Of a DNA stretch of 64,000 nt, positions 10,610 to 52,270 are shown one piece after another. The position numbers and the translations under genes were made by a program. The notes beneath the pieces are model-generated. The model did not search any database. It worked only from the letters and a program-made list of their open reading frames with translations, and was not told the origin of the DNA. Position 1 is the stretch's first letter; every line of letters starts with the position of its first letter. The stretch comes from an uncultured Gammaproteobacteria bacterium (lineage in GTDB: Bacteria; Patescibacteriota; Patescibacteriia; JAHIZJ01), in assembly GCA_964371245.1 (NCBI GenBank), contig CAYJKP010000002.1, positions 102,960 to 166,959 on the forward strand. Reading direction: 5' to 3'.

Positions 10610-10610
10610 C

Positions 10611-12290: not shown

Positions 12291-12293
12291 AGG

Positions 12294-13814: not shown

Positions 13815-13851
13815 AAAACATACGTATAATTGTGGTTTAGGTGTTTGTTTC

Positions 13852-15170: not shown

Positions 15171-16079
15171 CTATCTTGCTTGGCGCCGCGTTTTCAATTT
15201 TTGCCAAACCACCAGGAGCGGGCTGGCCACAAAGATCGATGAATACGTTCCGGCGATGATTCCGATGATCATGGCAAAGACAAACCACCGAATAGAGTCG
15301 CCGCCGAAAAAATAGAGGGCGGTAAGGACGAAGAGTGTGGTTAATGATGTGTTGAGTGAGCGAGCCAGAGTCTGGTTGATCGCTTGATTGATTGTTTCCT
15401 CAAAATTATTGGCCGCGCCACGCAACATATTTTCCCTGATTCGATCGAAGACGACGATCGTGTCATGGACGGAAAAGCCAAGGATCGTTAAGAGGGCGGT
15501 GATAAAGAGCGCGCCCACCTCAACCTGATAGACGTAGCCGAGAAAAGCGTAGACGCCGAGAATGACAATCATATCGTGCACCAAGGCGATCACGGCTGCC
15601 ACGCCCATAACCCAGCTCGGGATGATCGTCGTTTTTGATATTTTCCGAAAAGCGATGGTGATATAGATGATGATTCCAAGCATGACAAAAATTACGGCTT
15701 GGACGGCGCGGGACTGTAATTCCTTGCCGATCGTCGGTCCAACCGATTCAAAGCTTTCTTCTTGAACATTGCCATAGGCCTGGTTCAGTCCATCAAGGAG
15801 GGCGGCCCGTTTCTCATTATCGATTGTTTGGGATCGGATCGTTATTCCTTGATCTCCCGAGGGTTGGATGGACTCGGTTGGCAAACCTAGCTCTTTTAGT
15901 TTTGCTTGGAGATCCTGGGGACTCGGTCGATTGGCAGAAAAATTTAGCTGCCAGATCGTACCACCAGTGAAATCAATATTCGGTTTCAGGCCGCCAAGAG
16001 AAAGGAAAACGATACCAGGAACAAGAATGATGCCTGAGAGCACGAACCACCAATATTTTCTTTGGATAATTCGATACAT
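15171..16079 (-). CDS. secF: Protein translocase subunit SecF
   Basis: 302 aa with six TM helices and a SecD/SecF family C-terminal TM bundle. Adjacent to secD. Confidence 0.85.
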   Translation of the reverse strand: MYRIIQRKYWWFVLSGIILVPGIVFLSLGGLKPNIDFTGGTIWQLNFSANRPSPQDLQAKLKELGLPTESIQPSGDQGITIRSQTIDNEKRAALLDGLNQAYGNVQEESFESVGPTIGKELQSRAVQAVIFVMLGIIIYITIAFRKISKTTIIPSWVMGVAAVIALVHDMIVILGVYAFLGYVYQVEVGALFITALLTILGFSVHDTIVVFDRIRENMLRGAANNFEETINQAINQTLARSLNTSLTTLFVLTALYFFGGDSIRWFVFAMIIGIIAGTYSSIFVASPLLVVWQKLKTRRQAR

Positions 16080-20314: not shown

Positions 20315-20419
20315 GCTATATATTTTGCCTGAAAAACGGAGACTTGTAAAGATGTGTTTACAATAAACGTAGGCGAGCCTTAAGGCTCGCCTACAGAAAA
20401 TATCCTATACGTAATCTTT

Positions 20420-21799
20420 TTACTGCACCAACATCAGCCGATTCTTCTCTTTCTTCACTGGCACCCACTTGAAGCTGCCAGTCACCGAGTCGATATAGGC
20501 AACTTTCAAATATTTACGGCCGAGGAGATTAGCCAGTTTCGTCCCAATCCGGGCTGAATCCGACTCGAGCATTTGGAGGCGCTGTTTTAACAGGTATTGG
20601 AGCCAGAGGCTGTAAAATACCGGGTCGGTCGGCTGGGCGTCGAACTGAGTCAATGATTCTGGTCCGTATTTCTCTTTCAAATAATCCCGAAACACACTGT
20701 CGGTTTTCATAACCATAGCTAAATCCTGAGTTTTCGCCAAAACGTGCAAGAACGCTATCACTCGGTTTCGGTTATTGCCTCGAATTGCCTCTTCAAATTC
20801 CGGCCGGATGTTCAGCTGTTCCCGGCCGACTCGTTTCAGAATATTTTTTTCCTCCTCGTAGATCGCCTTTTGCTCATCCGGGTTTTGGGAGTAGATTTTC
20901 AGGAGATTCTCGACACCAAGGTGGCTTGGCTTGGCGTTTGTTTGCTCCGCCGCTGGCCGAGCACCGACGGTAGCCGGAGCGGCGCCGGCCTTGCTTCGGT
21001 TGTAATCAGCGTCGTATTTTTCGACTATGTCATACCATTTTTCCATTCGTTTCTGCTCTTCCCGCTCTTTTTCGCTGTATTTTTCTAATACGCCGCCGCG
21101 AATCGTGCCCGTTGCAGCCGGATCATCGACCGGCACGGCGGATTCAAAACCGGCCGGCGAATCAGACGGCGTCTTCAGATACTCGAGGAACTCAAAGAAA
21201 GACCGCAAGCGCTCGCGCGACTCTTTGCCTAGCGCTTTCGTGTTTTGGCTGTTAACGAGATATTCCGACAGGCGGATTGACGTAATCTGTTGGGTACCTA
21301 GCGCAATCACCTCGTCAAGCGCCCAATTTTTTACCGTTCCAGCCTGCTCTTTGCCGTCTTTGGTGACTGATTCATGCGTTAAGACCTCAGTATTGTTCCG
21401 GATGGCCTCGAGAATTTCTTTTCTCAGCGCATTTCTGTCCTCGAGACGGACGAACGTAACCAGCTTGTGCTTCAATTTCTCGATTAAATTAAAGTCGGGG
21501 ATCTGCCACGTTAAGATATAGTGGTCCTGAAACAAGGGGATAATGACCGGTTCGCGGTACCAGGGCAAGGCGATCCAACGCAGCTTCCACTGCAGGGTTT
21601 CGTACTCCTTATAGACGGCGGCGTCACTGGTCGGCAGCTCCGGACGCGCGGCCAGGTTGCGGGCGATTACCTCGGCCAATTCAAACGCCTGCTCGCCCAT
21701 GTCATATTTCGCGCAAACGCTAAAAGAATCCTGAAACCTGGCTAGTGTCTCGGGGCTTTCAAATGCTTTGGCTTGGTTGTTTGGTGTTGCGTCGACCAT
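20420..21799 (-). CDS. Hypothetical cytoplasmic protein (459 aa), last gene of the giant-protein operon
   Basis: No recognisable motifs. Has a charged Glu/Lys-rich central segment. Co-oriented and tightly spaced with the upstream genes. Confidence 0.4.
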   Translation of the reverse strand: MVDATPNNQAKAFESPETLARFQDSFSVCAKYDMGEQAFELAEVIARNLAARPELPTSDAAVYKEYETLQWKLRWIALPWYREPVIIPLFQDHYILTWQIPDFNLIEKLKHKLVTFVRLEDRNALRKEILEAIRNNTEVLTHESVTKDGKEQAGTVKNWALDEVIALGTQQITSIRLSEYLVNSQNTKALGKESRERLRSFFEFLEYLKTPSDSPAGFESAVPVDDPAATGTIRGGVLEKYSEKEREEQKRMEKWYDIVEKYDADYNRSKAGAAPATVGARPAAEQTNAKPSHLGVENLLKIYSQNPDEQKAIYEEEKNILKRVGREQLNIRPEFEEAIRGNNRNRVIAFLHVLAKTQDLAMVMKTDSVFRDYLKEKYGPESLTQFDAQPTDPVFYSLWLQYLLKQRLQMLESDSARIGTKLANLLGRKYLKVAYIDSVTGSFKWVPVKKEKNRLMLVQ

Positions 21800-21804
21800 A
21801 AATT

Positions 21805-24594
21805 TTATAAGACTACTGGTGGCTCATGCGCCGTGGCCGGTGCCTCTTGGTGCGTCTCGCTATAGCCCGTTACTACCCGGTCAACATTATCCAGTTTCAT
21901 GCCTTCCTTACCTGCGAAATCACGCAACTTACTTAAAAACACATCATAATTTTCCATAACGAAATCCTTGTAGTGCGCTTGGAATTCAGCTGGTGTTTCG
22001 GCGTCAATATTCGATTTTTTTATCGCATCCCGATTGGCTTCAAAATATCGCGTCACCACATCGATATTATTCTGTTCTACACCCGCCTGCACGTCAACCA
22101 TTTCGCGTATCGGTCCGGTAAGTAGCCCTTGGTTATATTCGTTCGTTAAATGACGGGCATTGCTGACATTAAACCGCTCTTTGCCGATCGAGCTGGCAAT
22201 CGCCGGCCATTTTTCCGCGATCATCTTCGCGCCATACCCGGTCAGCTTGCCGTATCGTTCGCTCTCTGGATTGGTTGGATCTTTCAGGTATTCATCCATG
22301 AAACCAAGCCTGTTGAATCGCCGCAGCGCGGTTTCAAAGTCCTGTTTACCCATCTCCGTGTCCACGCGCAGATTTTGAAGTTTGCGCGAACGCTGATGAA
22401 GCGTTCCATCGGAAGTCGTACCGATCGCTTGTCCGACGTTCCAATGCCCCGTCTGCTCAGCTACGTTGCTGACATCGTTTTCGAGGGCATAGGCCACCTG
22501 CTGATTCATTTTTAGCTTCTTGATAAAGGCTTCGCGGATGAACGCGTGCATACCCTGCAGGCCGGAGGGCAGCTGCTCGCCCGCTTTGATGATCGCCTGT
22601 CCGCCATGCTCAAACTCTTCCTTTATCTTATCGGCCGACATGCCCTTTGTAAAATCATCAAACTCCGTTTTGCTCATCAGGCCCTTTTCCCGATGTTCAT
22701 AATAATCCTCGGTCGGCTTATAGGAATAATTTACGACTTCGTTCTCATGGCCAACGCGCGCCGCTTGCAGCAAGATCGCGCGCGCCGCCGCCATATCGCC
22801 CCGGGCAATGGCGCCCTTCATCAGGGAGATCAGCTCTTCCTCGCTGGAGGTATTGTATTTCTTGCTTTCTTCCGCGTCCTGGGCGCGCCGCAGCTGCTGG
22901 GCCATAAAATCGCGCGGCTTGTACGCTTCGTATTTCGCGACCACTTCCTTTAACGAGGCGACTGCCCTTGCTTCCTGGTCGCGCAGGGCCGTTAATTGTT
23001 TGTATTCTTCGCCGCCTATTTCTTTCGTCGCGCGAGCTCGGGCGACTTCCTCGGACAAGTCTTTATCATTGGCCATTAACTCTCCCGTTCGAGCATCAAT
23101 CTCGTCCTTATGCGCCTCCTCGTAACTCGTCATTCTGGATTTCGCCACGTTCAGTTTTTCTTCGCCCTCGGTCAGCCTACGCTCTGCCCTGCCTTGCGGT
23201 ATCCGGCGGCCCCAAGTTTTAAAACCATGATTATAGAACAGGCCTTGCATGTAGGTTTCAACCAACGACGGCGCGCCAGCACCGGAAATCGGCGCGAGAA
23301 AACCGCCTTTGCGTAATCGTTCTTCGGCAAATATTTTCCCTTCCCGTTCTTCTTTCGCCCGCTTTAAGACCATACCTTCTTTTATGTTCCGATAGACATT
23401 GACCGGATTGAACTCAAGGCCTTTCCCGACGCGGCCAGGCAGAGCGCCAGATTTAATTTTACGTGCTCCCCAGGCATACGCGGTTCCCGGAGCTCGAGCC
23501 AGCCACGCACCCGTGGCCGCCGCCATTCCACCGGCGACTTTTGACCCTAGTCCGCTTCCGAGCGTGCGCGTCTGCTGGGCGGCCATGACCGCAGCGTACA
23601 GTAGGCCGATAGTCACAAAATAACTCATGAGATTGTCCGAGGTCGACATTTCCGAGATCCCCGCGGCTAAACCGGTTGATTGCTGTCCTGCTTCGACAAA
23701 CGCTCGCGTGCCCTCCGGTATGCCCTGGGTAATCTCTCGACCGACATTGCCCGGATTTGTCGCCATAACCGCCATTGCGAGCCATAGATAAAAAGCAATA
23801 ATGGGTCCGACGGTCACGTAATTTCCAAACGTACTCCACCACTGGGTGGCCGCCTTCTTCAACGGACTGATCATTTCCCCAAGATAGGCCAGGGGCGATA
23901 GCACCACCAGGATCCAAAGCACGATGATTCGGCCGAGTAAAATAAAGATGATCATCAGCACGGCGCCGATCATAAACAGTAACAGAAAGATACCGAGAGC
24001 GACGGCAGCGAATGCCTCACCGACGCTGGCGATCGCGCCCGTATCAGTTTCCTGGGCAAACATGAGCACCTTCTGCAAACCACTGGAAGTTGTTAAATTC
24101 GCGGCGGCCGCATCGGCGAAACGCGAGGTAAATGTATTCATGATGACCTGGCACAGATCGATGAAAAAGCCGGCGATGGTCTTCGAAAAGTTCAGCAAGA
24201 ACGCCATAATGATAAACTTCGGCAGGGTGCGCTTATAATGATAACTTTCGATCCGGAGCACCGTGCCCCAAGAAATGGCCAGCAGGATCAAAACAAGAAA
24301 GACGTTGCACATATCGCGTACCACCACCCAGCCCTTCTGTACAGCCGTCGTGTCAACAAAGTTATTAAACTGAACAAACGCCAGCATGATGTTGATCAGG
24401 ACAACGAGCAGTTTCCCGAGCAGCGAGAGAATCATAAAGAACGGATAGGTCACCCACATCAGGATCCGATCGGTTATGCCCATCGCGGCGTGAATCGGCG
24501 TCCAGGTCACGAGAATACCAGCCAATACGAAAATACAGACGATCAGAATCGTGAGGCGCTGGGTTTTTCTTGTGGGTTGAAAGTTGATTTTCAT
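21805..24594 (-). CDS. Large polytopic membrane protein with a C-terminal cytoplasmic coiled-coil domain (hypothetical; VirB6/TrbL-like topology)
   Basis: 929 aa. At least seven hydrophobic helices in the N-terminal 350 aa, then a long charged alpha-helical region (EAHKDEIDARTGELMANDKDLSEEVARARATKEI...). Confidence 0.45.
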   Translation of the reverse strand: MKINFQPTRKTQRLTILIVCIFVLAGILVTWTPIHAAMGITDRILMWVTYPFFMILSLLGKLLVVLINIMLAFVQFNNFVDTTAVQKGWVVVRDMCNVFLVLILLAISWGTVLRIESYHYKRTLPKFIIMAFLLNFSKTIAGFFIDLCQVIMNTFTSRFADAAAANLTTSSGLQKVLMFAQETDTGAIASVGEAFAAVALGIFLLLFMIGAVLMIIFILLGRIIVLWILVVLSPLAYLGEMISPLKKAATQWWSTFGNYVTVGPIIAFYLWLAMAVMATNPGNVGREITQGIPEGTRAFVEAGQQSTGLAAGISEMSTSDNLMSYFVTIGLLYAAVMAAQQTRTLGSGLGSKVAGGMAAATGAWLARAPGTAYAWGARKIKSGALPGRVGKGLEFNPVNVYRNIKEGMVLKRAKEEREGKIFAEERLRKGGFLAPISGAGAPSLVETYMQGLFYNHGFKTWGRRIPQGRAERRLTEGEEKLNVAKSRMTSYEEAHKDEIDARTGELMANDKDLSEEVARARATKEIGGEEYKQLTALRDQEARAVASLKEVVAKYEAYKPRDFMAQQLRRAQDAEESKKYNTSSEEELISLMKGAIARGDMAAARAILLQAARVGHENEVVNYSYKPTEDYYEHREKGLMSKTEFDDFTKGMSADKIKEEFEHGGQAIIKAGEQLPSGLQGMHAFIREAFIKKLKMNQQVAYALENDVSNVAEQTGHWNVGQAIGTTSDGTLHQRSRKLQNLRVDTEMGKQDFETALRRFNRLGFMDEYLKDPTNPESERYGKLTGYGAKMIAEKWPAIASSIGKERFNVSNARHLTNEYNQGLLTGPIREMVDVQAGVEQNNIDVVTRYFEANRDAIKKSNIDAETPAEFQAHYKDFVMENYDVFLSKLRDFAGKEGMKLDNVDRVVTGYSETHQEAPATAHEPPVVL

Positions 24595-24620
24595 TATTTG
24601 CCGATGAATCGACGTCTTCG

Positions 24621-27600
24621 TTATTGCGTGATTACGACACTGCCGTCAAAAAGGCTATTGCAATACGCACCCGCACCTTGACACTGCCCCTGATTTTGAC
24701 AGATATTCAGCGGGGTCGTGCCACCGCGACAGGCGCCCACGCAGGTACCACCGCCACAGTTCAGATCGCTCGAGCAATCAGTGCCGTCGTTGTCGCAATA
24801 CCCGCTGCCCTTGTCCCAGTTATCTTCGACAAAGACACGGACAAAGCAGGTATCGGGACCGCCGCCGGCTGCTCCGCAATCCCCATAGGTATAGTCATGT
24901 GTCAAGGTATGATACGGCCCATTCGGGTCTGACCGCGGCGGGATACCGGGATTCTTTGGAAATGATTCCCAGTGGTTATTGCCCCAGTCAACAACAAACT
25001 TCTTGATCGGCATTTGCTCGGGGTCGACCATGGAATTGAAGGTGACCGTGGCCGTCCCTGATCCATTCTTGATTTGCACCGGCCCGGTCCGGCCGTTAAT
25101 CTTAATATTGAACACTGTTGGTTGCGCCCAGCAAAAATCAAACGGAAAACCGGTGATGTCATTCGGTCGATTATCCGACATGCCGTTTGAACCGTTGTGC
25201 ACTTTGCATTGATCCATTGCCTCAAATGCATCCGAGTAGGCGGCCTTGAATGAATTCAGGCTGAGGTCCGGCTCATACTTGGCCTCGGTCGGGTCTGGCG
25301 CTGAATCAGGCAAACCATTGCAGTATTGTAGTTGTTTGCTTTGGCCATGCTGCGCTTGGATATGGCCGAGCGTGCAATTATCACCCGATCGGATACCGCC
25401 CTCGCACTCCCAGTCAGCGCATTCGGCAACAACTCCGGGTGCGCACGCGCCCGGCACCTCACAACAATCCGCCGCATCCTGGCCGACCCGGCACGGATTA
25501 CCCAGTAACTCGCCGCCCGTGCAAATACCATTGTATTGGATACATGACCCGCCGGAAATACCCGTGCAATTTGAGTCAGAGGCGCAGGCTTGGCCGCACC
25601 AATAGCCACAACCGGGTGGATTACCGTTTTCATTCCAACCGCAGATCGCCTCGGCGCAAGAACCTTCAGGGCAATCCCCCTGTCCTGAGCACGGTCGTCC
25701 AGCGTTAGTGCCACCGACGCAGACTTTATCGACACAGGAACTTCCAACTTCGCATGAACCGCTACCGCACGGTAAGCCGCTCGTGCTGCATCGTTCCTTC
25801 TCTTCGCAAACCCCACCGTTACATACGCCGGCGTCACAACGGGCGTTATTTAAGCGGCAGATATCAGCGTTTCCGAGACAGGCGGCACCGCCGGGACATG
25901 GATTGGTCGGCTGATTATTTGAGGCACATAGCGTCGTGGCTTGATTGGAGCAGACACCGTCGGCGCAGAAGCCGCTTCGACAATCGCATTGGCCAACTGC
26001 ATCATAGGTGCACTTTGAATTGGCATTACAGGAATAACCGGCTGGACAGGCATTAGCCGGCTGACAGGTCTGTGTGTGGTCGCCCGAGCAGCGTGGCCGA
26101 TTCCAACATACTTGGGCTGGGTTCGCGTACAGGCAGAATATTCCGGCATTACAATTAGAATCATCAATGCACTGCGTCCCAGGATAATCGCCCCAGCCGT
26201 CGACATTATTATCGCAATATTTCGAACAATTCTGGCCACCGTTGCATTCCTCCCCCGTATCACGGCATATTGAAATGTTGACGCAGCTTCCTTCGTTCGG
26301 ACAGTCGCAGGCTGCCGGCACATTCGAGACACATTTCTTCAGTGCGCCCTGGGTCAGACATGTGGACCCAGTCGGACAATTGTTGGCAATATTACACTGG
26401 TCGCTACCCGCGTCCGTTCCCCCGACGCACCGTTGGGCGACACAGGCATTACCGCCGCCCGGGCAGGCGCCGAGGCCGCACGGGATGGTTGGATCATTAC
26501 TGCAGCGCTGGCTCAGCTCGCAGACCTCGCCAGCCGCGCAGCCGCACGGCGTCATCGGACTTGGGTTGTCGGGGTCAATGCTAATACAGAGCTGACCCGA
26601 ACACACGCCATTGCCGATATTACACTCGTCATTGTTTTCACACCCAGTTCCTCTGAAGGGGTATTGCGGGTCATTGGCTTTGAAGCAGCCCATCGTCGTG
26701 ATGTCGACGCATTTGCCGTCAGACCATACCCAGACGCCATAGACATCAGCAAAGATCCGCTGGATGCGACGCAGCCCTAAGCCCCCGCCCGTGGCCGTGT
26801 AATTTGTCGGCGGCTGGTTGGGTGGTGGCGGTTCGCCTGGGGTTAATGGGCCGCTGAATTGTTCCGTCGTTGTATAGCGATTTGGGAAGACGTCATCACA
26901 AATGGTTATTTCCGATCGGTCATAACGGAAGCCAGTCCACCAGCCCCAGCTATACAACCGTTTATTGGCTTTATGCTTGCATGAATATGGAACGCCAGCG
27001 CGCGGATAGCTAAGATAATCCACCTCATCAAAGCCGTGTTCAACGCCCCGGTACGGCGACCAGCCCCAGTCCTGAGCGAAGGGCGAGAATGAACCGCCGC
27101 CTGTTTGCTGCTGCGGATCCCACCATAGGTAGATGATTGGTTGGTATTTTGAGCCCAGGTCTTTCGTCATTTCATACGGATTGCCCCAGACTGACGTGTA
27201 GTCTGTGTCCCAGGTCGCCGGATCGCCCGGCACGTTGGTCACGTTATTCCCAGCGTGTCCAACTGAACCAGGATAGGTCAAACTGCCGTATGGATTCGCA
27301 TCATCGTCAAAGGTAACGCCAAGATCCCAGATCTGGGAATAATTCCCCTTGATCCGTTCGGCCCAAGCTTTGTTCGCGCCGCTCGGATCGACTGTCTGGC
27401 CGATCACGTCGCAACGGAACGCGAGCACCTCGCCGATGTTTCCCGGCCAGGCTTCGCCGAGATGATTATGGCTCAGCCAACCGTCAAATGGTTGCCAGAC
27501 ACCCGGTGCGATTGGGTTGAGGCCGTTTTGGTGGTTCGAATCCCACCAGTTATACTGGAGGTTTTCACCGCCGCCGCCGCTGTGCGACCAGTATTCACAG

Positions 27601-30600
27601 ACATCGGAATCCGGTATTTCGTTCGGCACACACACGTATAAACATTTGTCTTGATGGCCGCCGCCGCGGACGGCTTTTTCGCAGAGCTTGCGATGATAGC
27701 CAAGCTCTTCACAGGAATAGTGGCTGGCGTAATTGCAATTGCCGTTGGAAAGACCATATGGTCGTCGGAATTCATAGAATGACCCTTGGAGACAGTAGTA
27801 GAGCGGCGCGTCGCCAAAATAACCGACCAGCTGATCCGTATCATCGGCCTCGCCGGAAATGATATCAACCGGCCACCACTGCAAACAAACGCTGCGATTT
27901 TGCGGGTCGGTTTCGAGACAGTAGCCTTTCCAGCCGCGATAAATCTTCCGGGCCGTACCGGTGGTCTTGGTATAGTCGCATGTTAACGAATTCGATTCCG
28001 GATAGAGTCGACAGGATCTGACCACAAACCGCGGATCGTTCGGAAGCTCGGGCGGCATCTGCGTGGATTTCTTTTCCAGCAAGGTCTGGAACATCACGTC
28101 ATCAACCTGGAATTTTTGCAGCCCGGCGTTCCCGCCCGCGTCCACAATACTGAGATAGGTATTTTTAAATACGCCACTGACGACCATCGCATTACCAAGC
28201 GGCAAGGTAAAGATCTGCCAATTCATCGTGGCCGTAACCGTGCCAAAAACCTGACATGGCCCCGCATCATCGTTATAACAAAGCTGAACTTTTATCTTAG
28301 AATCTTGATCAGCCCGCAATTTCAGGCTTATAACCAACGGCTGGTTATCAAATATGAGCGAATCGAGATTAATCTTCGCTCCCGAATCGGCTCCGGTCAA
28401 ACCGCCTACCTCCATCACCCAATTCTGTTTTGTCGGATCAAGCGGGTCTTCGACAGCCTTCAGGGCATTCGGCGGGTTGATGTTCCGCGGCTCCCACGGT
28501 GAGGAGTTTTTAAACTGAAAGTCGTAATTCGGTAAATTCATACCGATGCCGATTTCTTGCATCGATCCGGTTGGGTAATACCCATGGATGACTTGGCAGA
28601 CGTTGCTCTCGCCGACACACTGATCGCAATAGGTCGGATTATTGAGATCGCAAGCCGTGTTATTTGGGCATACGCCGCCGGGGCAATCGTCTGGTTTTTG
28701 GCAGAGCAGTCCGTCCTTGTCGCCGCCCTGACAGATGCCATCGCGCCAGCAGACCGTGTTCGGATCTTCGCTGCATCGCCAATTATAGCCGACCCGCGCA
28801 TAGCCTGAATAATTTACGGAGTTGTCAACTTCCGTTTTGTGATCAAACGTCAAGTCAGTCGGGTGGTTCGGAGGTGTCACTAGTCGATTCATGTACTCGA
28901 CGGTCGGGGTGGCATTTTCAAATTTCGGCGTTCGAATGCAATGTGAAGTCAAACCGCAATCGGCATCGATGAGACAAGGTCGCGAGGGATCGTTTTCACA
29001 TTGCCCTTCGCCGACCGGCTTGATACATTGGCCGGACGTGCCTAGCTGACGGCAATTTCCAATATCATAACAGGTCAATTCCTTCGAACCATCGCTTTTC
29101 TCCACTTCGTAGCTCGTCTTGCAATACAACCACTGATTACAGACCCGATCACGATCAACTTTATAGACGCTGTTGGAATCGGCCGTGCAACCGCCGCCAG
29201 TGCACGTTTCGGGCGTTCCTCGGTTTGTATCCAGTTTCGCGTATGTCAAATCGCTATCATAGGTGAGACCCTGTGAATTAGTGGTGTCGTTGAATAGAAT
29301 GCAGCCCTCGTCTTTATTAACCACCCCGGCACAACTCGCCGAATCGATAGTGCTATCAATATAGTAGTAGGGCTGGCAGCCAGACAGATAATCAGGCGGG
29401 AGAGCGCCGTTCTGGTAGGGCCGGCACTGTTGATCCGTCCGGTAAAACTCGCCTTGGTCGTTATATTCAGCCCGACAATTCGCGTTGCAGCCTTGGAAAA
29501 CACAGGTGCTTTGAGGACAGTCGGCGTTGATTTTACAATTCTGTCCCCCGCTCGGGCCAGCTAAACAGACGCCATCTGGCGTTACTTTATCCGGTGACGG
29601 CGTTTGGGGATCGCGGTACTCACTGCAACCGCTGGCTCCATTTTGACATTTACCAACCCAATACTCGGTACATTTCTGACCTTCCGGACACTGACCGTCG
29701 TCTTGGCATATTCTTTCCGCGCAGTAGCCGTCGTTCGAACTGTTCGCGTCGGCGCAGCCATATGCGGCATCGTTTGGATCGGCGTCAGAATCGCAGGCTT
29801 GCCCGGCGCGTATTCCGCCATAGCAGACTTCCGTCAAGTCGGAGCATAAACCGTCGTTATTGCCACCCGCCTGATCACAGCCATAGAGTGGATCCTTCGG
29901 ATCAACTTGCGAATTACATTTTTCTCCGGCCCGATAGCCACCGCGGCACGTTTCTTGCAGCCGTGGTCCGCAGACCTTCGTCGGCATTGGCGATTCTGGA
30001 TATTGCTCGCAAAGGCCGCCGTCACATGACGCGAGATCGCCCGGCCCGAAACACGCCACGCCCGGATTGTTTCCGCCAATACAGGAGTATTTTTGGACGG
30101 GGCAAAATTTATCCGTCCCACTCTTCAGCCAAGCATCATAGACCTCGCCTTGATATTTGAGACTCTTTCGAAAATCGCAGACTTGGGCGTTTGGCTGCTT
30201 AAACTGCGTAAAACTTCCGGAATCTGCGCCAATCTGGAATTGATCACAGAATGTTTCTTCTTTCGTACAGAGTGTTTGGTCGTATTCGTCGGGATTATTG
30301 ATGAGATAGGTTGTCTTAAACTTCGTTACCCGGCCTTCCACGTCAAAGCTCGGCAAACCGAGGCCTTCGCAGCCTTTCGCTTTGGCTTGGCATTTGTACT
30401 TCGCCGCGTTGACGATCGGCCGGACATTGTCCGCCTCTACTCTTACGCCTTTGTCTGCCGGCTCATAAGGAAAGGCGGTGGTCGAGTTGTTCGTTTCGAT
30501 GGCGGCGGTACAACCGACTTTCTCAGGTCGGCAGAGATTCGTGAAACTCTGGATATATTGATCGTTTCCTTCACTGTCCGTATAGAGCGAGCAACCAACC

Positions 30601-33600
30601 CATTGCGCCGGGCATTCTTGGTAGGTTTTATATCGGAGATAGACGCTATCGCGGGTTTCCCAAACCGTAATATTATCGATGAAAAAGCCGGCGCCCGCTT
30701 CAATCGTCAGCACCTCGGCCGGGTCAGGCGCGCCAATAAAATGGGCTGGGCCAAGAACATAATGATTCCAATTCTCGTTGGTTGCGGTCACGCCCGCGAC
30801 TGGCACAAAGTCGATTGCTGGATTCGGTGCAAATTTCACCGTGATCTGGGCGTCGTCCGCTTCAGCCTTCGCCCAGAATTCAATCATGTAATCCTTGCCG
30901 TCTTCAACCAGCTCGCTGACGGCCGTTGACATACTGGGGGTTACTTTGGCTGAGCCGCCGCCGGCCTTCAGCGATTCAGTGCTCCAGGTGACATTACCAG
31001 CCCAGCCAGCCGTATCGCCGTCATCAAAATTATCCGTGATAATCTTCCGGATATTGTATCCGGTGCTCCCCCGATACTCACGACAGGCCGCCTGGTTAGC
31101 CGGACAGCGTATGCCCTGATCGGGGATCGCATTGTAAATTGTGTTATCGAGGGTGTTCCTGAGCGGGTGGCAGTCTTCCGAGCAGGTGATGGTGTTAAAC
31201 ATCGGGCAATAGTAACTGTTGCCACTCTGATCATAGTATTGGGTGCAGCCGAAATCATTCGGGTCGCAACCACACGCCCCGCCCGGCGTCATTTCCGGCG
31301 GCGCATTCGTACCGCCCTTCAGGTCTTCGGCTACCAGTTCAAATCCATTAACATCGTCGCCTTCCCAGCGATAGTACGTCGCGCAGGTCGGATTCGGCTG
31401 TTCACAGCGGCGGATGGCGCTGTAATACTCAAGCCCCTCGCCGCCCTGGGCGACGATATCAAGATTGGTGTATTCCTCACAACCGACATAAGCTGCGTCG
31501 CAGGTTTTCCCCGTCGTGGCGATAAAAGTCGTCGACAATATTCCCGACCGGTCAACCAAGGCCTGGTCGGTGCCGTTTGATACGGGCATCTGCTGATAAT
31601 CTTTGCACCCGACAAATTCAGCCGGACAATAGTCGTCCGAGGTTACCACCGCCGGCACCTTGTCGCCTTTTTCATCAGGCGTATACATGTCGCACCCGAT
31701 TTCATCTACCCGGCAAGCGATCGAATCCTTCGACAAGCTGACGCTCACCTGGTCAAATTGTCCGCCGCTTAATAAAACCCTGATAAACGCCGCGTCCGGT
31801 TTATCGGCCTCAACCCCAAAGGTAACAAAATCCCATCGGCCGGTATTTGTTTCACGCTGGGCGCGCGGATCGGCGCCAACGACCGTCAGGTCACAGTCGG
31901 CAACCACGGCCCGGTTCTTATCACGACATTCGGTGAGGAGCGGGGTAGCGCCGCCGCCTTTCACCCAAGCCGAGACATCATAGCGCGTACCATAGACGAT
32001 CGGCACGTCCTGATATCCGCCGGAGCCGGAGTAATAATCCCCATATCCTTGAGCGGCATCGATGGCGGTACCAACCCAGCCGTCGGCCAGATGATCGCCA
32101 GCGACATAATTGTCATTCGTGTCGTCTTTATAATAATCATGCCCGCTGTCGATACTAAAGCTGGAATTCGAAATGTAATTTTCCGCCTTATTTTTCAAAT
32201 ACGCTTGGTTAGCCGTGTCGTACATCGCGTGGGCCGTGACGTCGCCCAATTCAAGCTGTACGCCATCGAGCGTGATCTCGCAATTCGGAGTAATCTTAAA
32301 AGCTACCTGGTTTGGATTTGCGGTCGGGGCAGGCGGATCGGTTTCTCCAACCTCGCCAAACTGACCGGTCACGACAACTCTCGACCAGCCGTCAGCGCTC
32401 ACCCGGTGGGAATCCAGCGGATCGACGTAATTCATCCAAGCCCCGCCGGTGTGGTTTCCGCCGATCTCAACGTGGACATTGTCGCATGCGCCTTTTGCAA
32501 AGAAAGAAGCGGTAAATTTCTTATGATAGACCGGCGACTCAGTATCGAAATAATACGCCACCTCGCCGCTTGTCCGAACGGCATAGGTACCGTCCGTGGC
32601 ATCGGTTGTTGCGAAGGCGTCACTGGCGAACTCCCATTTCCACTGCGAGTAATCAGCCGCGAAGACGTCTGGATCATTATCGTCGACTATCCCGGCAAAC
32701 GTTTCAAAGCTCGAATTGGCCGCGAGATTACTCCCGGCGATAACAGGAATGTATTCCGTGCAACCGCGGTCGCCACTCGAGCACTTCGTGGCATTATTAT
32801 CCAGACGGATCTGGTCGCCGGCAGCGAGATAATCAGGCTCGGCCGGGTTGACCAAATGCTCCGGGGAGCTGCAGACAAAGCCTTTTTCCTTATTGTCATA
32901 ATTCTGGCAGTACCACTGACAGCCGGCATTATCCGCCGAACAGGAATCGTGATTGACCGTGCTTTCAATGAAAGATGCTTCCTTTTTCTTTGAATCAACA
33001 AAAGTTTGACAGGTATTTTCATAGGCCTGGCAAGCAGTTCCGGAAAACCGCCAGATCGGTTTTTCCTCAGCGCAGTAGCCATAGAACAAGCAGGTGCCAT
33101 CTTCGGCTTCCTGTATGCAGGTACGTTCATCCGCGCAATAGCTCCCCCGTTCAACCTGCCGTGACGGCGTATCGCGAGAATCAATCACGCCGTCATTGTT
33201 CGTGTCGTCTAACTGGACTAGCGCATCGGCCACCAGTTGCTCGCCCGGCCCTTCCTTTTTGCAATATGTTTCAGGCGCCTTCAACACCCAATTTGGGTCA
33301 ATAAGATGATAAAACGGATTGTCTATTTGAACGCCTTGGGGGTTGGTCCATTTTTCATCATCATAGAGATCAACCAGTTCTTTCAGTCCAAATCCCTGGG
33401 CCGGTACAACATAATTTTTGATATAGAGCGCGGCCGCTTCCCAGGTCGAGGGGATGACGCGATATTTGCGCAGGATAACCAAGCTGCGGTAGGGATAGCC
33501 GTTGGTATATTCCGGCTCTTGTCCATTTTGATCAAAACCAAACGTGCCGGTACTGTTGAGCGAGCCTTCTTCAAGGGCTTGCTTCACCGTGATCCGGCGG

Positions 33601-34676
33601 TTAATCGCGTCCGCGAAGTTCTCGTCGATCACGCAATTATTTGTCACGCGGTACTCGCTTGGACAGGCGGCGAGCGTGCTCACGATATCGACCGGCCCGC
33701 GCGCTCGGAAGGTTGGTCGGACGAGCTCGGCAAAATACCGTTTGGCCGCGGAAACACCGCTGGTTGTCATTTCAAAGCTATCCCCGCTGCCCGACGGCAG
33801 GATTCCTTTTTCAAAAATTGTTTTATAGAGCCGATTGATTAAGGTGTTAGTGAATAGGGAAAACGCATCGGCCAGCGGCTCGCCCGTATAGACTTTGTCG
33901 GCGGCCGTACTTTCTTGGATTGATAGGTTGGCGACCGTGTTGATGTATTCTTTTGGCGTTTTTGTTATGCCGGTTACCAAATCCTTCACGCCGAGAAAGG
34001 AGCTGGCCGTCTGCTCCAAGCGCATTTTCGCTTCCGCTTTTGCGACCGCCTTTTCGGTTTCATCCATGATCAAGAAATAGGCGCCGATTTGCGATGAGTT
34101 GACATCGAAGACATGCTGAAAATCCACCATGTCCTGAAGCGACATCTTGGATATCTTGTTGAAATTCTTGGCCATGTTTGTCACCGGACAGGAAGCTTTT
34201 GGTTCGAGCGTTTGCTTGGCATAGACACCGAGCCTTAAACGAATGGCCGGGTCAAATGATATCGTACACAAGCTCTCGCCGAATAGGCTCTGAAATTCTG
34301 TATCGAGAAATTCACCAGCCGCGCCGTCAACAACCTGAGTGAGATACTTCCCAGGATTCGAAATAAAGAGTGGTTTTTGCCCTTTGCCGCCCGAGCCGAT
34401 ATAGACGGCGGTATCATAGGCGATCTTATTTAAGAAATATGAAAGGCCTTTTTTCCAAGCCACGGCCGCGGCGCTTTTCAGCACCTTTAATATGGCATCG
34501 GTGACATTGCGATGTTCTTGGGCGACGTCTTCAACGGGGATAACGGCTTGAACCTTGGTTGGGACAAAATAAAACACTCCCAAGCTAAGAACGAGTGAGA
34601 GCGATAACATAACGCCGACGACAAGAGAGCGTATTTTTTTAGCTCGGCTTTTTATTTGAGGATGGCTCTGTGGCAT
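24621..34676 (-). CDS. Giant secreted cysteine-rich surface protein (3351 aa) with repeated disulfide-module motifs
   Basis: Single uninterrupted ORF. Signal sequence MLSLSLVLSLGVFYFVPTKVQA. Hundreds of Cys in recurring C-x(3-6)-C-x(2-4)-G-x-C modules (CPGGGNACVAQRCVGG, CEVGSSCVDKVCVGG, CPEGSCAEAICG). All long antisense ORFs across it are short and low-complexity. Confidence 0.75.
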   Translation of the reverse strand: MPQSHPQIKSRAKKIRSLVVGVMLSLSLVLSLGVFYFVPTKVQAVIPVEDVAQEHRNVTDAILKVLKSAAAVAWKKGLSYFLNKIAYDTAVYIGSGGKGQKPLFISNPGKYLTQVVDGAAGEFLDTEFQSLFGESLCTISFDPAIRLRLGVYAKQTLEPKASCPVTNMAKNFNKISKMSLQDMVDFQHVFDVNSSQIGAYFLIMDETEKAVAKAEAKMRLEQTASSFLGVKDLVTGITKTPKEYINTVANLSIQESTAADKVYTGEPLADAFSLFTNTLINRLYKTIFEKGILPSGSGDSFEMTTSGVSAAKRYFAELVRPTFRARGPVDIVSTLAACPSEYRVTNNCVIDENFADAINRRITVKQALEEGSLNSTGTFGFDQNGQEPEYTNGYPYRSLVILRKYRVIPSTWEAAALYIKNYVVPAQGFGLKELVDLYDDEKWTNPQGVQIDNPFYHLIDPNWVLKAPETYCKKEGPGEQLVADALVQLDDTNNDGVIDSRDTPSRQVERGSYCADERTCIQEAEDGTCLFYGYCAEEKPIWRFSGTACQAYENTCQTFVDSKKKEASFIESTVNHDSCSADNAGCQWYCQNYDNKEKGFVCSSPEHLVNPAEPDYLAAGDQIRLDNNATKCSSGDRGCTEYIPVIAGSNLAANSSFETFAGIVDDNDPDVFAADYSQWKWEFASDAFATTDATDGTYAVRTSGEVAYYFDTESPVYHKKFTASFFAKGACDNVHVEIGGNHTGGAWMNYVDPLDSHRVSADGWSRVVVTGQFGEVGETDPPAPTANPNQVAFKITPNCEITLDGVQLELGDVTAHAMYDTANQAYLKNKAENYISNSSFSIDSGHDYYKDDTNDNYVAGDHLADGWVGTAIDAAQGYGDYYSGSGGYQDVPIVYGTRYDVSAWVKGGGATPLLTECRDKNRAVVADCDLTVVGADPRAQRETNTGRWDFVTFGVEADKPDAAFIRVLLSGGQFDQVSVSLSKDSIACRVDEIGCDMYTPDEKGDKVPAVVTSDDYCPAEFVGCKDYQQMPVSNGTDQALVDRSGILSTTFIATTGKTCDAAYVGCEEYTNLDIVAQGGEGLEYYSAIRRCEQPNPTCATYYRWEGDDVNGFELVAEDLKGGTNAPPEMTPGGACGCDPNDFGCTQYYDQSGNSYYCPMFNTITCSEDCHPLRNTLDNTIYNAIPDQGIRCPANQAACREYRGSTGYNIRKIITDNFDDGDTAGWAGNVTWSTESLKAGGGSAKVTPSMSTAVSELVEDGKDYMIEFWAKAEADDAQITVKFAPNPAIDFVPVAGVTATNENWNHYVLGPAHFIGAPDPAEVLTIEAGAGFFIDNITVWETRDSVYLRYKTYQECPAQWVGCSLYTDSEGNDQYIQSFTNLCRPEKVGCTAAIETNNSTTAFPYEPADKGVRVEADNVRPIVNAAKYKCQAKAKGCEGLGLPSFDVEGRVTKFKTTYLINNPDEYDQTLCTKEETFCDQFQIGADSGSFTQFKQPNAQVCDFRKSLKYQGEVYDAWLKSGTDKFCPVQKYSCIGGNNPGVACFGPGDLASCDGGLCEQYPESPMPTKVCGPRLQETCRGGYRAGEKCNSQVDPKDPLYGCDQAGGNNDGLCSDLTEVCYGGIRAGQACDSDADPNDAAYGCADANSSNDGYCAERICQDDGQCPEGQKCTEYWVGKCQNGASGCSEYRDPQTPSPDKVTPDGVCLAGPSGGQNCKINADCPQSTCVFQGCNANCRAEYNDQGEFYRTDQQCRPYQNGALPPDYLSGCQPYYYIDSTIDSASCAGVVNKDEGCILFNDTTNSQGLTYDSDLTYAKLDTNRGTPETCTGGGCTADSNSVYKVDRDRVCNQWLYCKTSYEVEKSDGSKELTCYDIGNCRQLGTSGQCIKPVGEGQCENDPSRPCLIDADCGLTSHCIRTPKFENATPTVEYMNRLVTPPNHPTDLTFDHKTEVDNSVNYSGYARVGYNWRCSEDPNTVCWRDGICQGGDKDGLLCQKPDDCPGGVCPNNTACDLNNPTYCDQCVGESNVCQVIHGYYPTGSMQEIGIGMNLPNYDFQFKNSSPWEPRNINPPNALKAVEDPLDPTKQNWVMEVGGLTGADSGAKINLDSLIFDNQPLVISLKLRADQDSKIKVQLCYNDDAGPCQVFGTVTATMNWQIFTLPLGNAMVVSGVFKNTYLSIVDAGGNAGLQKFQVDDVMFQTLLEKKSTQMPPELPNDPRFVVRSCRLYPESNSLTCDYTKTTGTARKIYRGWKGYCLETDPQNRSVCLQWWPVDIISGEADDTDQLVGYFGDAPLYYCLQGSFYEFRRPYGLSNGNCNYASHYSCEELGYHRKLCEKAVRGGGHQDKCLYVCVPNEIPDSDVCEYWSHSGGGGENLQYNWWDSNHQNGLNPIAPGVWQPFDGWLSHNHLGEAWPGNIGEVLAFRCDVIGQTVDPSGANKAWAERIKGNYSQIWDLGVTFDDDANPYGSLTYPGSVGHAGNNVTNVPGDPATWDTDYTSVWGNPYEMTKDLGSKYQPIIYLWWDPQQQTGGGSFSPFAQDWGWSPYRGVEHGFDEVDYLSYPRAGVPYSCKHKANKRLYSWGWWTGFRYDRSEITICDDVFPNRYTTTEQFSGPLTPGEPPPPNQPPTNYTATGGGLGLRRIQRIFADVYGVWVWSDGKCVDITTMGCFKANDPQYPFRGTGCENNDECNIGNGVCSGQLCISIDPDNPSPMTPCGCAAGEVCELSQRCSNDPTIPCGLGACPGGGNACVAQRCVGGTDAGSDQCNIANNCPTGSTCLTQGALKKCVSNVPAACDCPNEGSCVNISICRDTGEECNGGQNCSKYCDNNVDGWGDYPGTQCIDDSNCNAGIFCLYANPAQVCWNRPRCSGDHTQTCQPANACPAGYSCNANSKCTYDAVGQCDCRSGFCADGVCSNQATTLCASNNQPTNPCPGGAACLGNADICRLNNARCDAGVCNGGVCEEKERCSTSGLPCGSGSCEVGSSCVDKVCVGGTNAGRPCSGQGDCPEGSCAEAICGWNENGNPPGCGYWCGQACASDSNCTGISGGSCIQYNGICTGGELLGNPCRVGQDAADCCEVPGACAPGVVAECADWECEGGIRSGDNCTLGHIQAQHGQSKQLQYCNGLPDSAPDPTEAKYEPDLSLNSFKAAYSDAFEAMDQCKVHNGSNGMSDNRPNDITGFPFDFCWAQPTVFNIKINGRTGPVQIKNGSGTATVTFNSMVDPEQMPIKKFVVDWGNNHWESFPKNPGIPPRSDPNGPYHTLTHDYTYGDCGAAGGGPDTCFVRVFVEDNWDKGSGYCDNDGTDCSSDLNCGGGTCVGACRGGTTPLNICQNQGQCQGAGAYCNSLFDGSVVITQ

Positions 34677-34683
34677 GGTCGAA

Positions 34684-35526
34684 CTATTGATTTACACCGT
34701 TGATCGACTCAAGAAAGATGGCCTTGAGCGTCGTGTCGTCAATCTGTGACAGCGTCTCCGCCGGCACGCCCGAGGCAATCATTAATTCCCTGATTTCGGC
34801 CGGCGTGAGCTGGCTCAATTGCGCCAGCGTCTGCTGGTCGGTTTCGTTCAAGTTCGAGGCGTTCGCATTGTTCGTTACCGGCAGATTGGTGTTGCTGTTT
34901 GCTGACTCTTGAGAAAGCGCGTCAGCGTAGAGCTGCCGGAGCTCGACATCGGACAATGCATTCAGCGTTTCGGTCGGCACGCCAGCCCCCTTGAGCGCTT
35001 CCCGGAGCGCGCCTATGGAAACATTCTCTGGAGCAGGATTGGTATTTGAGTTCCCAGTGGTGTTCGTATTGCCGTTTTGGCTGCTATTCGCGTTGGTTGG
35101 TTGGTTTGTGTTTTCGCCCGCGTTGACGTTCGTGTTTTGGTTGATATTGTAAAAATTTGCGAGATTGCTATAGCCATTCGTGTTCGTCACTGCAATCGCG
35201 CAGGATTTTCCCTGCGGACAATTCGGATCTGTGCCATTCGCCAACTCCATGTTATCTGGAATCCCGTCGCTGTCAGAATCAGCCAGGTAGGGTGACGTGC
35301 GATGAATTTTCAACTCATCAAAATCCGAAAGGGTGTCATTGTCGGTATCCTTGTCACGCAAAGCGAGAATTTCCTTCCGCGCATTTACCGAATCTGAGGA
35401 TGACTCGTCCAGCCCGGTAAACGGACTCTTGAGGGAGCGCGAAAGCTGAAAAATTCCCAAACCTATTCCGAAACATCCCACCACAAAAATGAGCAACCAG
35501 AGAGTTTTTGGCGAGACTTCTTTCAT
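34684..35526 (-). CDS. Membrane-anchored protein with thrombospondin type-3-like Ca-binding repeats and an Asn-rich low-complexity region
   Basis: 280 aa. N-terminal TM LWLLIFVVGCFGIGLGIF. Two D-x-D-x-D-G-x-x-D-x-x-E type motifs (DKDTDNDTLSDFDE, DSDSDGIPDNME). N/T-rich linker. First gene downstream of the consensus promoter. Confidence 0.5.
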   Translation of the reverse strand: MKEVSPKTLWLLIFVVGCFGIGLGIFQLSRSLKSPFTGLDESSSDSVNARKEILALRDKDTDNDTLSDFDELKIHRTSPYLADSDSDGIPDNMELANGTDPNCPQGKSCAIAVTNTNGYSNLANFYNINQNTNVNAGENTNQPTNANSSQNGNTNTTGNSNTNPAPENVSIGALREALKGAGVPTETLNALSDVELRQLYADALSQESANSNTNLPVTNNANASNLNETDQQTLAQLSQLTPAEIRELMIASGVPAETLSQIDDTTLKAIFLESINGVNQ

Positions 35527-35599
35527 TTTGTTTGTCGACTTTTGTTTGGACTTTAAATATAGAAACCAAACTCAGGAACTGTGCACATTTTACCCCACC

Positions 35600-35628
35600 A
35601 TTATATCACAATAGCCCGCGTGTGTCAA
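35600..35628 (-). promoter_or_regulatory. Perfect-consensus sigma70 promoter (TTGACA - 17 nt - TATAAT) on the minus strand, driving the TSP3-repeat and giant-protein operon
   Basis: Minus-strand read TTGACAcacgcgggctattgtgaTATAATggtgggg. The -35 complement is at 35623-35628 and the -10 complement at 35600-35605. The first ATG of the downstream operon is at 35526. The promoter overlaps the 3' end of ksgA. Confidence 0.6.
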
Positions 35629-36475
35629 CTTTATGACTTTTGCCAATATTAGCCATTAAACTGTTTTTGCTGAGTTCGTATAAAGTCTCCCACTGCACCA
35701 AAGAAAGTTCCTGAGCTCGCGCGTTTTGAGATATTTCGCATTTGTCAAATAGCTCTGTTACCGCCTCGCGGGTCAAGTGAAAACCCGCGTCCAGGTTGTT
35801 GTGCAATTGTTTTCGCCGGGCTGAAAAGCCGACGCGGAGAAATCGAAAAAAATCGCGATCGGAGGGTTGCGGTTCTCGTTTGACGATAATGCGCACAACC
35901 GCTGAATCCACCTCGGGCTGGGGCCAAAAGCTCGTTCGCGGTACTGTAAAAAGTTTTTCAACCGCGCCATAGAACTGAACCGAGATCGAGAGGAGACTGT
36001 GCCCGCCGGGCTGAGCGATGATCCGATCGGCGACCTCGGCTTGAACCAGTAGTACCAGCCGCGCGGGTTGCGGTTTTTGCGAAAGAAACTCTCGAATAAT
36101 CAGGCTGGTGAGATAATACGGAATATTCGCGACAACCAGATAGCCACGGTCTGAGAGTACGGGCGGCTGCTGCTTCCGCCAACGAATAACATCGTCTTGT
36201 ATGAACTGGATATTTTTCAGTGTGCCGACATTTTTGTGAAGGAGCGGGATCATGTTCCGATCGTTTTCGATCGTGATAACGCGACCAGCCGCAGGTGCCA
36301 AAAGCCGAGTTAAATTCCCCGGGCCCGACCCGATCTCGAGCACGGTGTCGCTTTTTTTCAGCTCGCCGGCCGCCGCAATCCGTTCCAGAACCTGTTGATC
36401 CAATAAAAAACATTGGCCGCTTTTTTTCGACGGGTGAAGACCAAGTTGGTGGAGCTGCTTTTTTATGTCCATCAC
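35606..36475 (-). CDS. rsmA: 16S rRNA (adenine1518/1519-N6)-dimethyltransferase
   Basis: 289 aa. SAM-binding motif VLEIGSGPGNLTRLL and KsgA/RsmA family architecture. Confidence 0.9.
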   Translation of the reverse strand: MMDIKKQLHQLGLHPSKKSGQCFLLDQQVLERIAAAGELKKSDTVLEIGSGPGNLTRLLAPAAGRVITIENDRNMIPLLHKNVGTLKNIQFIQDDVIRWRKQQPPVLSDRGYLVVANIPYYLTSLIIREFLSQKPQPARLVLLVQAEVADRIIAQPGGHSLLSISVQFYGAVEKLFTVPRTSFWPQPEVDSAVVRIIVKREPQPSDRDFFRFLRVGFSARRKQLHNNLDAGFHLTREAVTELFDKCEISQNARAQELSLVQWETLYELSKNSLMANIGKSHKVDTRGLL

Positions 36476-48756: not shown

Positions 48757-48768
48757 AAATTATAAAAG

Positions 48769-52255: not shown

Positions 52256-52270
52256 AAATGTATTGATTAT

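Follow-up and report, generated by a model that had tools for sequence, protein, structure and literature searches.

In the prgQ operon of enterococcal pCF10, the surface adhesins PrgA, PrgB and PrgC are encoded upstream of prgH. The order prgH, prgI, prgJ, corresponding to VirB6, VirB3 and VirB4 of a type IV secretion system (T4SS), follows there (PMC12857230). The T4SSs of Patescibacteria, by which these ultra-small bacteria presumably act on their host cells, are MPF_FATA-like. A recent survey (Quinonero-Coronel et al. 2025), which lists VirB1/2/3/4/6/8, TrsD and the coupling protein T4CP and detected 480 VirB6 homologues, describes these systems as mostly devoid of a relaxase and thought to move proteins, and states that "no adhesins such as PrgB were detected" (PMC12102498). 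In Southlakia epibionticum, the T4SS and VirB6-like proteins of ~1000 amino acids (aa) were found to be essential (Wang et al. 2023, PMC10633639). Here we analyse a stretch of 64,000 nucleotides of Patescibacteria DNA (contig CAYJKP010000002.1; hereafter the window), in which four consecutive genes encode a membrane-anchored protein (g1), a cysteine-rich giant protein of 3351 aa (the giant), a polytopic membrane protein (g3) and a soluble protein (g4). With a probability of roughly 60%, we regard them as the envelope-facing module at the promoter end of a monoderm, MPF_FATA-related Patescibacteria T4SS, in which the giant acts as the host-contact element.

The four open reading frames (ORFs) are co-directional and separated by gaps of only 7, 26 and 5 nucleotides (nt) (Table 1). 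An earlier note on this DNA, made from the sequence alone, had reported these ORFs together with a perfect TTGACA-17-TATAAT promoter reaching into the 3´ end of ksgA; all ORF coordinates proved exact, and the promoter is indeed there, with a TG extension in addition. No second exact match occurs in the window, where chance would give 0.01. In seven of nine other lineages, the g1 orthologue likewise has a promoter 70-135 nt upstream that agrees with the consensus at 11 or more of 12 positions, four of these promoters being perfect. The strong intrinsic terminator 25 nt past the g4 stop codon is absent from the earlier note. With the promoter upstream and the terminator downstream, the four-gene unit is bounded on both sides.

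Conservation of the unit was followed by scanning one genome per species; 450 genomes encode a g3 relative, and 80 loci were fetched for synteny counts. The giant gene is located upstream of the VirB6-like gene, on the same strand, in 43 of the 54 loci long enough to judge. It is itself preceded by g1 in 10 of 11 loci extending far enough, while g4 follows g3 in 41 of 65. VirB4 was found on the same strand at most 10 kb downstream in 37 of 56 loci, always after PrgI/VirB3 and a TraC-like gene. Relatives with 64, 44, 37 and 26% identity all possess a giant (3137-3395 aa), a VirB6-like protein and a protein of 447-471 aa, and the order g1, giant, VirB6, g4 is kept down to 26-27% identity of g3 and g4 while the surrounding genes change. 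The block is therefore syntenic far beyond close relatives, a point on which the earlier note had let its proposal stand or fall.

One locus, L060, is colinear over the entire cluster: ksgA, a perfect promoter, g1, giant, VirB6 (with a TrbL hit), g4, an unknown gene, PrgI, a TraC-like gene, VirB4 and another unknown gene. A locus from Buchananbacteria has the same arrangement, the block running on into VirB4. Since the full cluster of L060 also follows ksgA, this position is evidently ancestral. Downstream of VirB4, L060 encodes a 328-aa protein with a T4SS_pilin (PF18895) domain (L060:19787-20773); giant and VirB2-like pilins thus coexist in one cluster, and replacement of VirB2-like pilins by the giant can be dismissed. 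Lineages with the block include Kerfeldbacteria, Falkowbacteria, Buchananbacteria, Magasanikbacteria and Komeilibacteria, which we take to belong to the class ABY1. Many third-party-annotation records of metagenome-assembled genomes (MAGs) that carry this Patescibacteria-specific module (L008, L012-L014 and others) are titled 'uncultured Gammaproteobacteria bacterium', which looks like a labelling error.

Extended VirB6 proteins join a large hydrophilic domain in their C-proximal part to a polytopic core; those of MPF_FA systems measure 700-900 aa, and the Rickettsiales Rvh paralogues belong to the same class (PMC12857230). The g3 protein starts with a signal-anchor; ~6 long hydrophobic helices can be distinguished, as can an extensive hydrophilic tail. 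Its polytopic N-domain (aa 1-342), a K/R-rich juxtamembrane segment and a C-terminal domain (aa ~400-900) follow one another, and the polytopic core is predicted to contain at least five hydrophobic helices in keeping with the VirB6 fold. An AlphaFold2 (AF2) model, built on an alignment of 48 family members, has a mean predicted local distance difference test (pLDDT) score of 81. In a Foldseek comparison of this model with PDB, the four top matches were all TrwI/VirB6 of the R388 T4SS (PDB 7o3v), with probability 0.94-1.0. Sequence and profile searches of PDB gave nothing meaningful. All 77 g3 homologues detected come from Patescibacteria. Several carry precomputed PF04610 TrbL or PF19590 TrbL_3 domains and one is annotated as VirB6-like; Pfam TrbL is matched by 9 of the 48 aligned family members (best E 1.2e-5) and by the L060 orthologue (E 2.3e-4). 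As judged from homologues, fold and synteny, g3 is an extended VirB6/TrbL-like translocon subunit of a T4SS, and the view of the earlier note that nothing in the unit matches a known secretion component is thereby superseded. No g3 relative was found among the viral contigs of IMG/VR, so the module bears no sign of being phage-borne.

Eight K/R residues follow the last transmembrane (TM) helix of g3 and the ~500-residue tail is free of Cys, for which reasons we place the tail in the cytoplasm. According to the AF2 model, it consists of a helical hairpin (aa 458-557) and a subsequent alpha/beta domain, with pLDDT >90; Foldseek found no specific structural match of the latter in PDB. Seven or more TM helices and a long cytoplasmic coiled coil had been proposed earlier for this protein. 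Its polytopic nature and cytoplasmic tail hold, but hairpin and globular alpha/beta domain take the place of a simple coiled coil.

The giant begins with a positively charged N-terminus, a hydrophobic core and an AxA site, conserved in 27 aligned sequences, with predicted cleavage after ...KVQA. Since this classical Sec signal peptide is conserved, the giant needs no polytopic protein as a dedicated exporter; the specific export route once suggested for g3 is thus superfluous, g3 being itself an extended VirB6. The same argument bears on an alternative in which the unit is a self-contained adhesin operon, independent of any T4SS, whose polytopic protein exports or anchors the giant. Such an operon would fit the closed four-gene unit of the window's clade, with its own promoter and terminator and no VirB4 within 64 kb. 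However, the signal peptide makes a special exporter needless, g3 has the VirB6 fold, the block reads straight into VirB3 and VirB4 in the 37 loci counted above (out of 56), and a coupling protein is encoded 8 kb downstream. We consider this explanation quite improbable.

Behind the signal peptide come, in this order, an N-domain, Cys-rich linkers with CBM_4_9, a hyper-Cys segment and a C-terminal domain. The N-domain (~500 aa, aa ~45-520) is well conserved, has invariant Cys pairs and is marked by the motifs LAYDTA..GQKPLF, FTNTL, GYPYRSLVILRKYRIIPVGWELAA and LIDPNWVLKAP, while the middle and C-terminal regions are more variable. CBM_4_9 (PF02018) at aa 1212-1281 scores 35.9 bits, above the gathering cut-off of 25.9 bits; a second, weaker match lies at aa ~880-910, and precomputed hits to the same domain exist on orthologous giants. 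When ten overlapping segments of the giant were compared with Pfam and NCBIfam at E<=1, CBM_4_9 was the only domain obtained, and no adhesin, toxin or enzyme domain appeared. Sequence and profile searches of PDB with the giant and with its N-domain profile revealed no relative. The protein has no LPxTG motif, no C-terminal TM helix and no lipobox. From its sequence features, the giant is predicted to be extracellular.

Cysteines number 192 (5.7%), most commonly spaced by 5-8 residues, and reach 15 per 100 aa in the hyper-Cys segment (aa 2700-3100). A secreted, Cys-rich protein had been foreseen correctly; its supposed construction from recurring C-x-C-x-G-x-C modules had not, as the motif occurs nowhere in the giant and self-comparison by BLAST reveals no recurring modules. 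The 23 orthologues discussed below contain only 3.3-4.3% Cys. The excess is located in aa 2400-3100 (nt ~25377-27476), a segment which tblastn recognises in 10 of 86 loci, closest relatives only, which suggests that the Cys-rich stalk was expanded in this lineage.

A word-index homology search with the N-terminal 660 aa of the giant gave 3 hits, an exhaustive HMMER profile search with the N-domain 1,486 cluster representatives at 50% identity; at E<=1e-30, 1,129 of these remain. The domain sits N-terminally in the top hits listed, 126 of the 150 top proteins have at least 2000 residues (up to 3808), and family members are mostly 2,500-3,800 aa long.

An ORF of 10 kb might arise as an assembly or annotation artefact, a chimera of repeats, as the earlier note itself had cautioned. 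Self-BLAST of the giant detected no internal repeats in either protein or DNA, and the identical 3351-aa product is present in an independent Logan assembly; g3 was recovered on 21 contigs. Furthermore, a sister strain has an orthologue 96% identical to the giant, and 23 independent MAGs contain intact orthologous ORFs of 2305-3224 aa with 75-128 Cys each. Nothing was found in favour of an artefact. The repeat-free sequence, the independent assembly and the intact orthologues leave it practically no probability, and we discard it.

Extreme size and CBM_4_9 modules would also suit a general envelope protein (a coat of the S-layer type, a scaffold of the cell wall or a protein for polysaccharide binding or scavenging), whose adjacency to VirB6 would reflect merely inherited order and the high expression of a locus behind ksgA. 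In the Candidate Phyla Radiation (CPR), extracellular proteins that are large and Cys-rich are common and have no reported T4SS link (PMC4736985), and the block is uncoupled from VirB4 in the window's clade. On the other hand, the order g1-giant-VirB6-g4 outlasts changes of its neighbours over the whole range of divergence given above, 11 exceptions among 54 loci are a low rate for such deep divergence, and conservation of the N-domain suggests that it docks specifically. An envelope protein of this kind is, in our opinion, a rather unlikely alternative.

The variability of the middle and C-terminal regions relative to the N-domain allows yet another interpretation, according to which the giant, whole or in part, is T4SS-aided cargo, an effector or toxin destined for the host; the relaxase-free T4SSs of Patescibacteria are thought to move proteins (PMC12102498). 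Against it stand the Sec signal peptide in place of a C-terminal T4SS signal and the lack of any toxin or enzyme domain in the Pfam and NCBIfam scans. The 192 Cys would moreover imply an oxidised extracellular fold, whose passage through a T4SS channel is hard to imagine. The cargo role is thus very improbable.

The g1 protein bears an N-terminal TM helix (aa 4-30) and a thrombospondin type 3 (TSP3)-like, Asp-rich motif, KDTDxDG...DSDSDG...DPNCP, which is invariant in an alignment of 16 orthologues and ends in DPNCPxGxxC with conserved C103 and C109. It matches Pfam TSP3_bac with E 1.4e-4 and 22.1 bits, under the 25-bit cut-off, and NCBIfam MtsD only locally; its profile found nothing meaningful in PDB. 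A variable N/T-rich linker follows the TSP3-like stretch, and then come two helical repeats of the form LRxxLxxxGVxExxLxxxDDxxL (one or two across orthologues). The earlier description of g1 as a membrane protein with TSP3-like, putatively Ca-binding repeats therefore agrees with its TM helix and motif, albeit at a sub-threshold Pfam score.

The g4 protein is composed of an N-module (aa 1-300) and a C-module (aa 300-459). It has no TM segment, in line with its expected solubility, and no signal peptide or Walker A motif. Searches of Pfam, NCBIfam and PDB, including a profile search, gave no match, nor did its orthologues match Pfam. The alignment with the Buchananbacteria orthologue is full-length (27% identity, E 6e-45).

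Comparison of close strains revealed an unusual pattern in this part of the unit. Between the window and L007 (MAG SO_2017_LW4_167), whose giants are 96% identical in protein, g3 is 92-100% identical up to aa 400, but only 22-74% over aa 400-929. Conversely, g4 is 24-54% identical over aa 1-300 and 92-100% thereafter. The hypervariable segment, comprising the g3 C-terminal domain and the g4 N-module, is flanked by sequences of ~84-90% nucleotide identity. The same pattern was observed in a second close pair, L013 and L020 (giant 80%, VirB6 core 81%, tail 13%). Across loci, the g3 tail type is associated with the g4 N-module type (23/1 vs 15/26, Fisher p ~1e-6, uncorrected for phylogeny). The breakpoints fall at domain borders, which suggests that VirB6 tail and g4 N-module work and swap together. 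As far as these sequence comparisons go, they suggest that the VirB6-tail/g4 pair is swapped as a cassette between close strains. The joint divergence of tail and g4 as a swappable cassette probably reflects a strain-specific property, e.g., recognition of substrate or partner.

These features can be combined in the following scheme. The polytopic N-domain of g3 would form a membrane translocon platform, its ~500-residue tail reaching into the cytoplasm, where it would be bound by g4. The giant would leave the cell through Sec, and the DsbA/thioredoxin enzymes whose genes adjoin that of the coupling protein would oxidise it on the outside. Its conserved N-domain would hold it at the T4SS, by VirB6 and/or by the membrane-anchored, putatively Ca-binding g1. 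Long, rigid and lectin-like, the giant could then make contact with the host and so correspond in function to the PrgA/PrgB/PrgC adhesins encoded upstream of prgH (VirB6) in pCF10. The general idea of a surface attachment or secretion operon in an episymbiotic, small-genome bacterium, put forward in the earlier note, fits well with homologues confined to Patescibacteria and with wide synteny.

A bolder version, which we hold to be speculative and rather doubtful, sees in the giant a disulfide-braced T4SS stalk or conduit of ~3000 residues, docked on VirB6 through its conserved N-domain with g1 as a Ca-dependent clamp and bridging to the host, while VirB6 tail and g4 make up a cytoplasmic gate. 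If true, the giant would do the job of VirB5, VirB2 and the outer-membrane core of diderms, the gate would decide what each strain sends or takes up, and more than a thousand Patescibacteria lineages would share a new architectural class of T4SS.

Several points weigh against assigning the unit to a T4SS with the giant as its host-contact element. The g3 protein of the window has no hit in Pfam (E<=0.1) or NCBIfam, TrbL and TrbL_3 included; with its own sequence under the Pfam TrbL threshold, its assignment to VirB6 relies on homologues, fold and synteny. Neither VirB4 (by tblastn with a Buchananbacteria query) nor VirB3 or TraC-like genes are present in the window, so that co-function with a T4SS in this genome is deduced from other lineages. 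In 11 of 54 loci, the VirB6-like gene has no recognisable giant upstream. Only ~100 of 3351 giant residues match a known domain, which makes "adhesin" a functional guess, and the AF2 model of the giant N-domain, based on 4 sequences, is unusable (pLDDT 41). Shared ancestry inflates or confounds the association of g3 tail with g4 N-module. As for the missing VirB4 block, the place after the unit is occupied in the window's clade by TerC, PEP-utilising proteins and SecDF. This is best explained by a rearrangement which parted the module from the VirB4 block in the window's lineage, the module retaining its own promoter and terminator.

A second T4SS-related cluster (10076-15030) lies in the same window, in which a 392-aa protein, a 536-aa single-TM protein, a TM-less coupling protein and a TraF-like thioredoxin are encoded. 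The coupling protein gene, ~8 kb downstream of the four-gene unit, is conserved in the sister strain, and its product probably belongs to the same machine as the four-gene module. The 536-aa protein adjoins the coupling protein in L001 and L007 too and, from position alone, may be its membrane partner or anchor. It is unrelated to a conserved 401-aa gene of the VirB4 block.

Together with the coupling protein, the thioredoxin and two DsbA-like genes occupy a region 8-12 kb downstream of the unit and plausibly represent the oxidants for the 192 Cys of the giant. The three oxidoreductase genes and lgt had been noticed before, though as upstream genes; in the direction of transcription they are located downstream. 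The gene lspA, said to be nearby, is 20 kb away. An action of lgt and lspA on the giant can be ruled out because the giant has no lipobox, and the two genes are thus irrelevant as its anchoring machinery.

Table 1. Coordinates of features in the 64,000-nt window.
Feature	Position	Strand	Remarks
g1, 280 aa	34684-35526	minus	first ORF of the four-gene unit
giant, 3351 aa	24621-34676	minus	second ORF
g3, 929 aa, VirB6/TrbL-like	21805-24594	minus	third ORF
g4, 459 aa	20420-21799	minus	fourth ORF
promoter TTGACA-17-(TG)-TATAAT	35600-35628	minus	sigma-70-type, perfect; overlaps ksgA 3´ end and stop codon
ksgA	35606-36475		3´ end overlapped by promoter
intrinsic terminator	20368-20395	minus	12-bp stem (8 G-C pairs), T-rich tail; 25 nt past g4 stop codon
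hypervariable, cassette-like segment	20923-23211	minus	g3 C-terminal domain and g4 N-module
392-aa protein	13852-15030		sigma-70 region 4 and HARE-HTH domain; start of second T4SS-related cluster
536-aa single-TM protein	12294-13904	minus	TM aa 52-80; directly upstream of coupling protein; no Pfam hit
VirD4/TrwB-like coupling protein, 559 aa, TM-less	10611-12290	minus	TrwB_AAD_bind (E 2.8e-12), TraG-D_C, T4SS-DNA_transf
TraF/glutaredoxin-like thioredoxin	10076-10609	minus	Pfam; directly after coupling protein
DsbA-like oxidoreductase	9070-9897	minus	Pfam
DsbA-like oxidoreductase	8246-9019	minus	Pfam
lgt	7111-7944		downstream of DsbA-like genes
lspA	55204-55674		
comM/Mg-chelatase-like gene, N-part	53135-53830		
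comM/Mg-chelatase-like gene, C-part	45813-46643		
large serine recombinase	46556-48244		
SNase/Excalibur nuclease	51251-52255		
split comM region with putative mobile element	45813-53830		element of ~6.5 kb between the two parts, apparently integrated in comM
leucyl-tRNA synthetase, 1194 aa	39423-43007		Ham1-like (aa 286-360) and NUDIX (aa 632-746) insertions
SecD	16079-17743		PPIC-type rotamase domain
two tRNA-Met (CAT) genes	1974-2216	plus	90 nt apart

Some other features of the window deserve mention. A comM/Mg-chelatase-like gene is apparently split, and its parts are separated by a ~6.5-kb stretch of 35-43% GC, compared with ~51% elsewhere, which encodes a large serine recombinase and an SNase/Excalibur nuclease; the region looks like a mobile element integrated in comM. 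The leucyl-tRNA synthetase, with inserted Ham1-like and NUDIX domains, is an unusual fusion with nucleotide-sanitising domains. SecD contains a PPIC-type rotamase domain between its first periplasmic segment and the P1 head, an arrangement kept in L001 and L003. Two tRNA-Met genes lie close to each other near the beginning of the window.

In the literature searched, the module of giant, g1 and g4 and its cassette appear undescribed, the machine itself being known. In the text of the 2025 survey, the words 'giant', 'large protein' and 'surface protein' have zero occurrences (PMC12102498); as no adhesin is reported there either, we conclude that giant, g1 and g4 are not described in it. Those portions of the Cell 2023 paper and of a 2025 FEMS review that were reached by term searches describe pilins and no giant-like protein. 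Known already are the presence of T4SSs in Patescibacteria and the proposal that large Cys-rich CPR proteins mediate attachment (PMC4736985). Few machines have been proven indispensable to Patescibacteria as epibionts, and the T4SS is one of them (PMC10633639); it is therefore of importance that the locus offers a concrete adhesin candidate where the survey found none (PMC12102498). The giant is the best candidate yet for the missing adhesin of the Patescibacteria T4SS, and the candidate family comprises >1,100 sequence clusters, Cys-rich, lectin-bearing and genetically wired to VirB6, g1 and g4. Strain variability of the sort seen in the cassette of VirB6 tail and g4 N-module is what one would expect of a specificity determinant. 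Three new marker families become available for finding and classifying such systems in metagenomes.

How does the locus compare with known systems? It belongs to the same machine family as the Patescibacteria T4SSs: its relatives have the order VirB6-like, PrgI/VirB3, TrsD/TraC-like, VirB4, the gene of the VirD4-like coupling protein stands away from the others, and a T4SS_pilin gene occurs in L060. In the window's clade it differs by the detachment of the module from VirB4. In Southlakia, SEML1_0011 and SEML1_0013 are likewise ~1000 aa long with helical cytoplasmic tails (PMC10633639 supplement). The VirB6-like gene shown there has genes for a small pilin and an NTF2-like protein as its neighbours; in the present locus, VirB6 instead comes after the TSP3 protein and the 10-kb Cys-rich gene.

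The Cys-rich extracellular proteins of Peribacteria, for which Anantharaman et al. (2016) proposed a role in attachment, resemble the giant by description, being CPR proteins with signal peptides, ~7% Cys and strain variation; they differ in average length (1,655 aa), in their 14-gene cluster and in having no T4SS link (PMC4736985). With pCF10 of Enterococcus, the locus has in common a monoderm, adhesin-reliant setting and the succession of surface-adhesion genes, VirB6, VirB3 and VirB4 in one operon. Giant and PrgB show no sequence or domain relationship, however, and the giant, with no polymer adhesin domain and no LPxTG sortase signal, is an analogue of PrgB by gene position only and not a member of its family. 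It is also ~2.5 times longer and presumably disulfide-stabilised, and the Patescibacteria systems are mostly relaxase-free.

The best structural match of the g3 N-domain leads to the TrwI/VirB6-TrwJ/VirB5 stalk of R388 (PDB 7o3v), by analogy with which an exported protein encoded beside VirB6 could sit on a VirB6 platform; VirB5, in contrast, measures ~220 aa and belongs to a diderm system. Finally, g3 agrees with the extended VirB6 proteins in its polytopic core and large hydrophilic C-proximal domain and departs from them in a tail that is a confidently folded alpha/beta structure in the model, paired with g4 and apparently exchanged together with it as a cassette.

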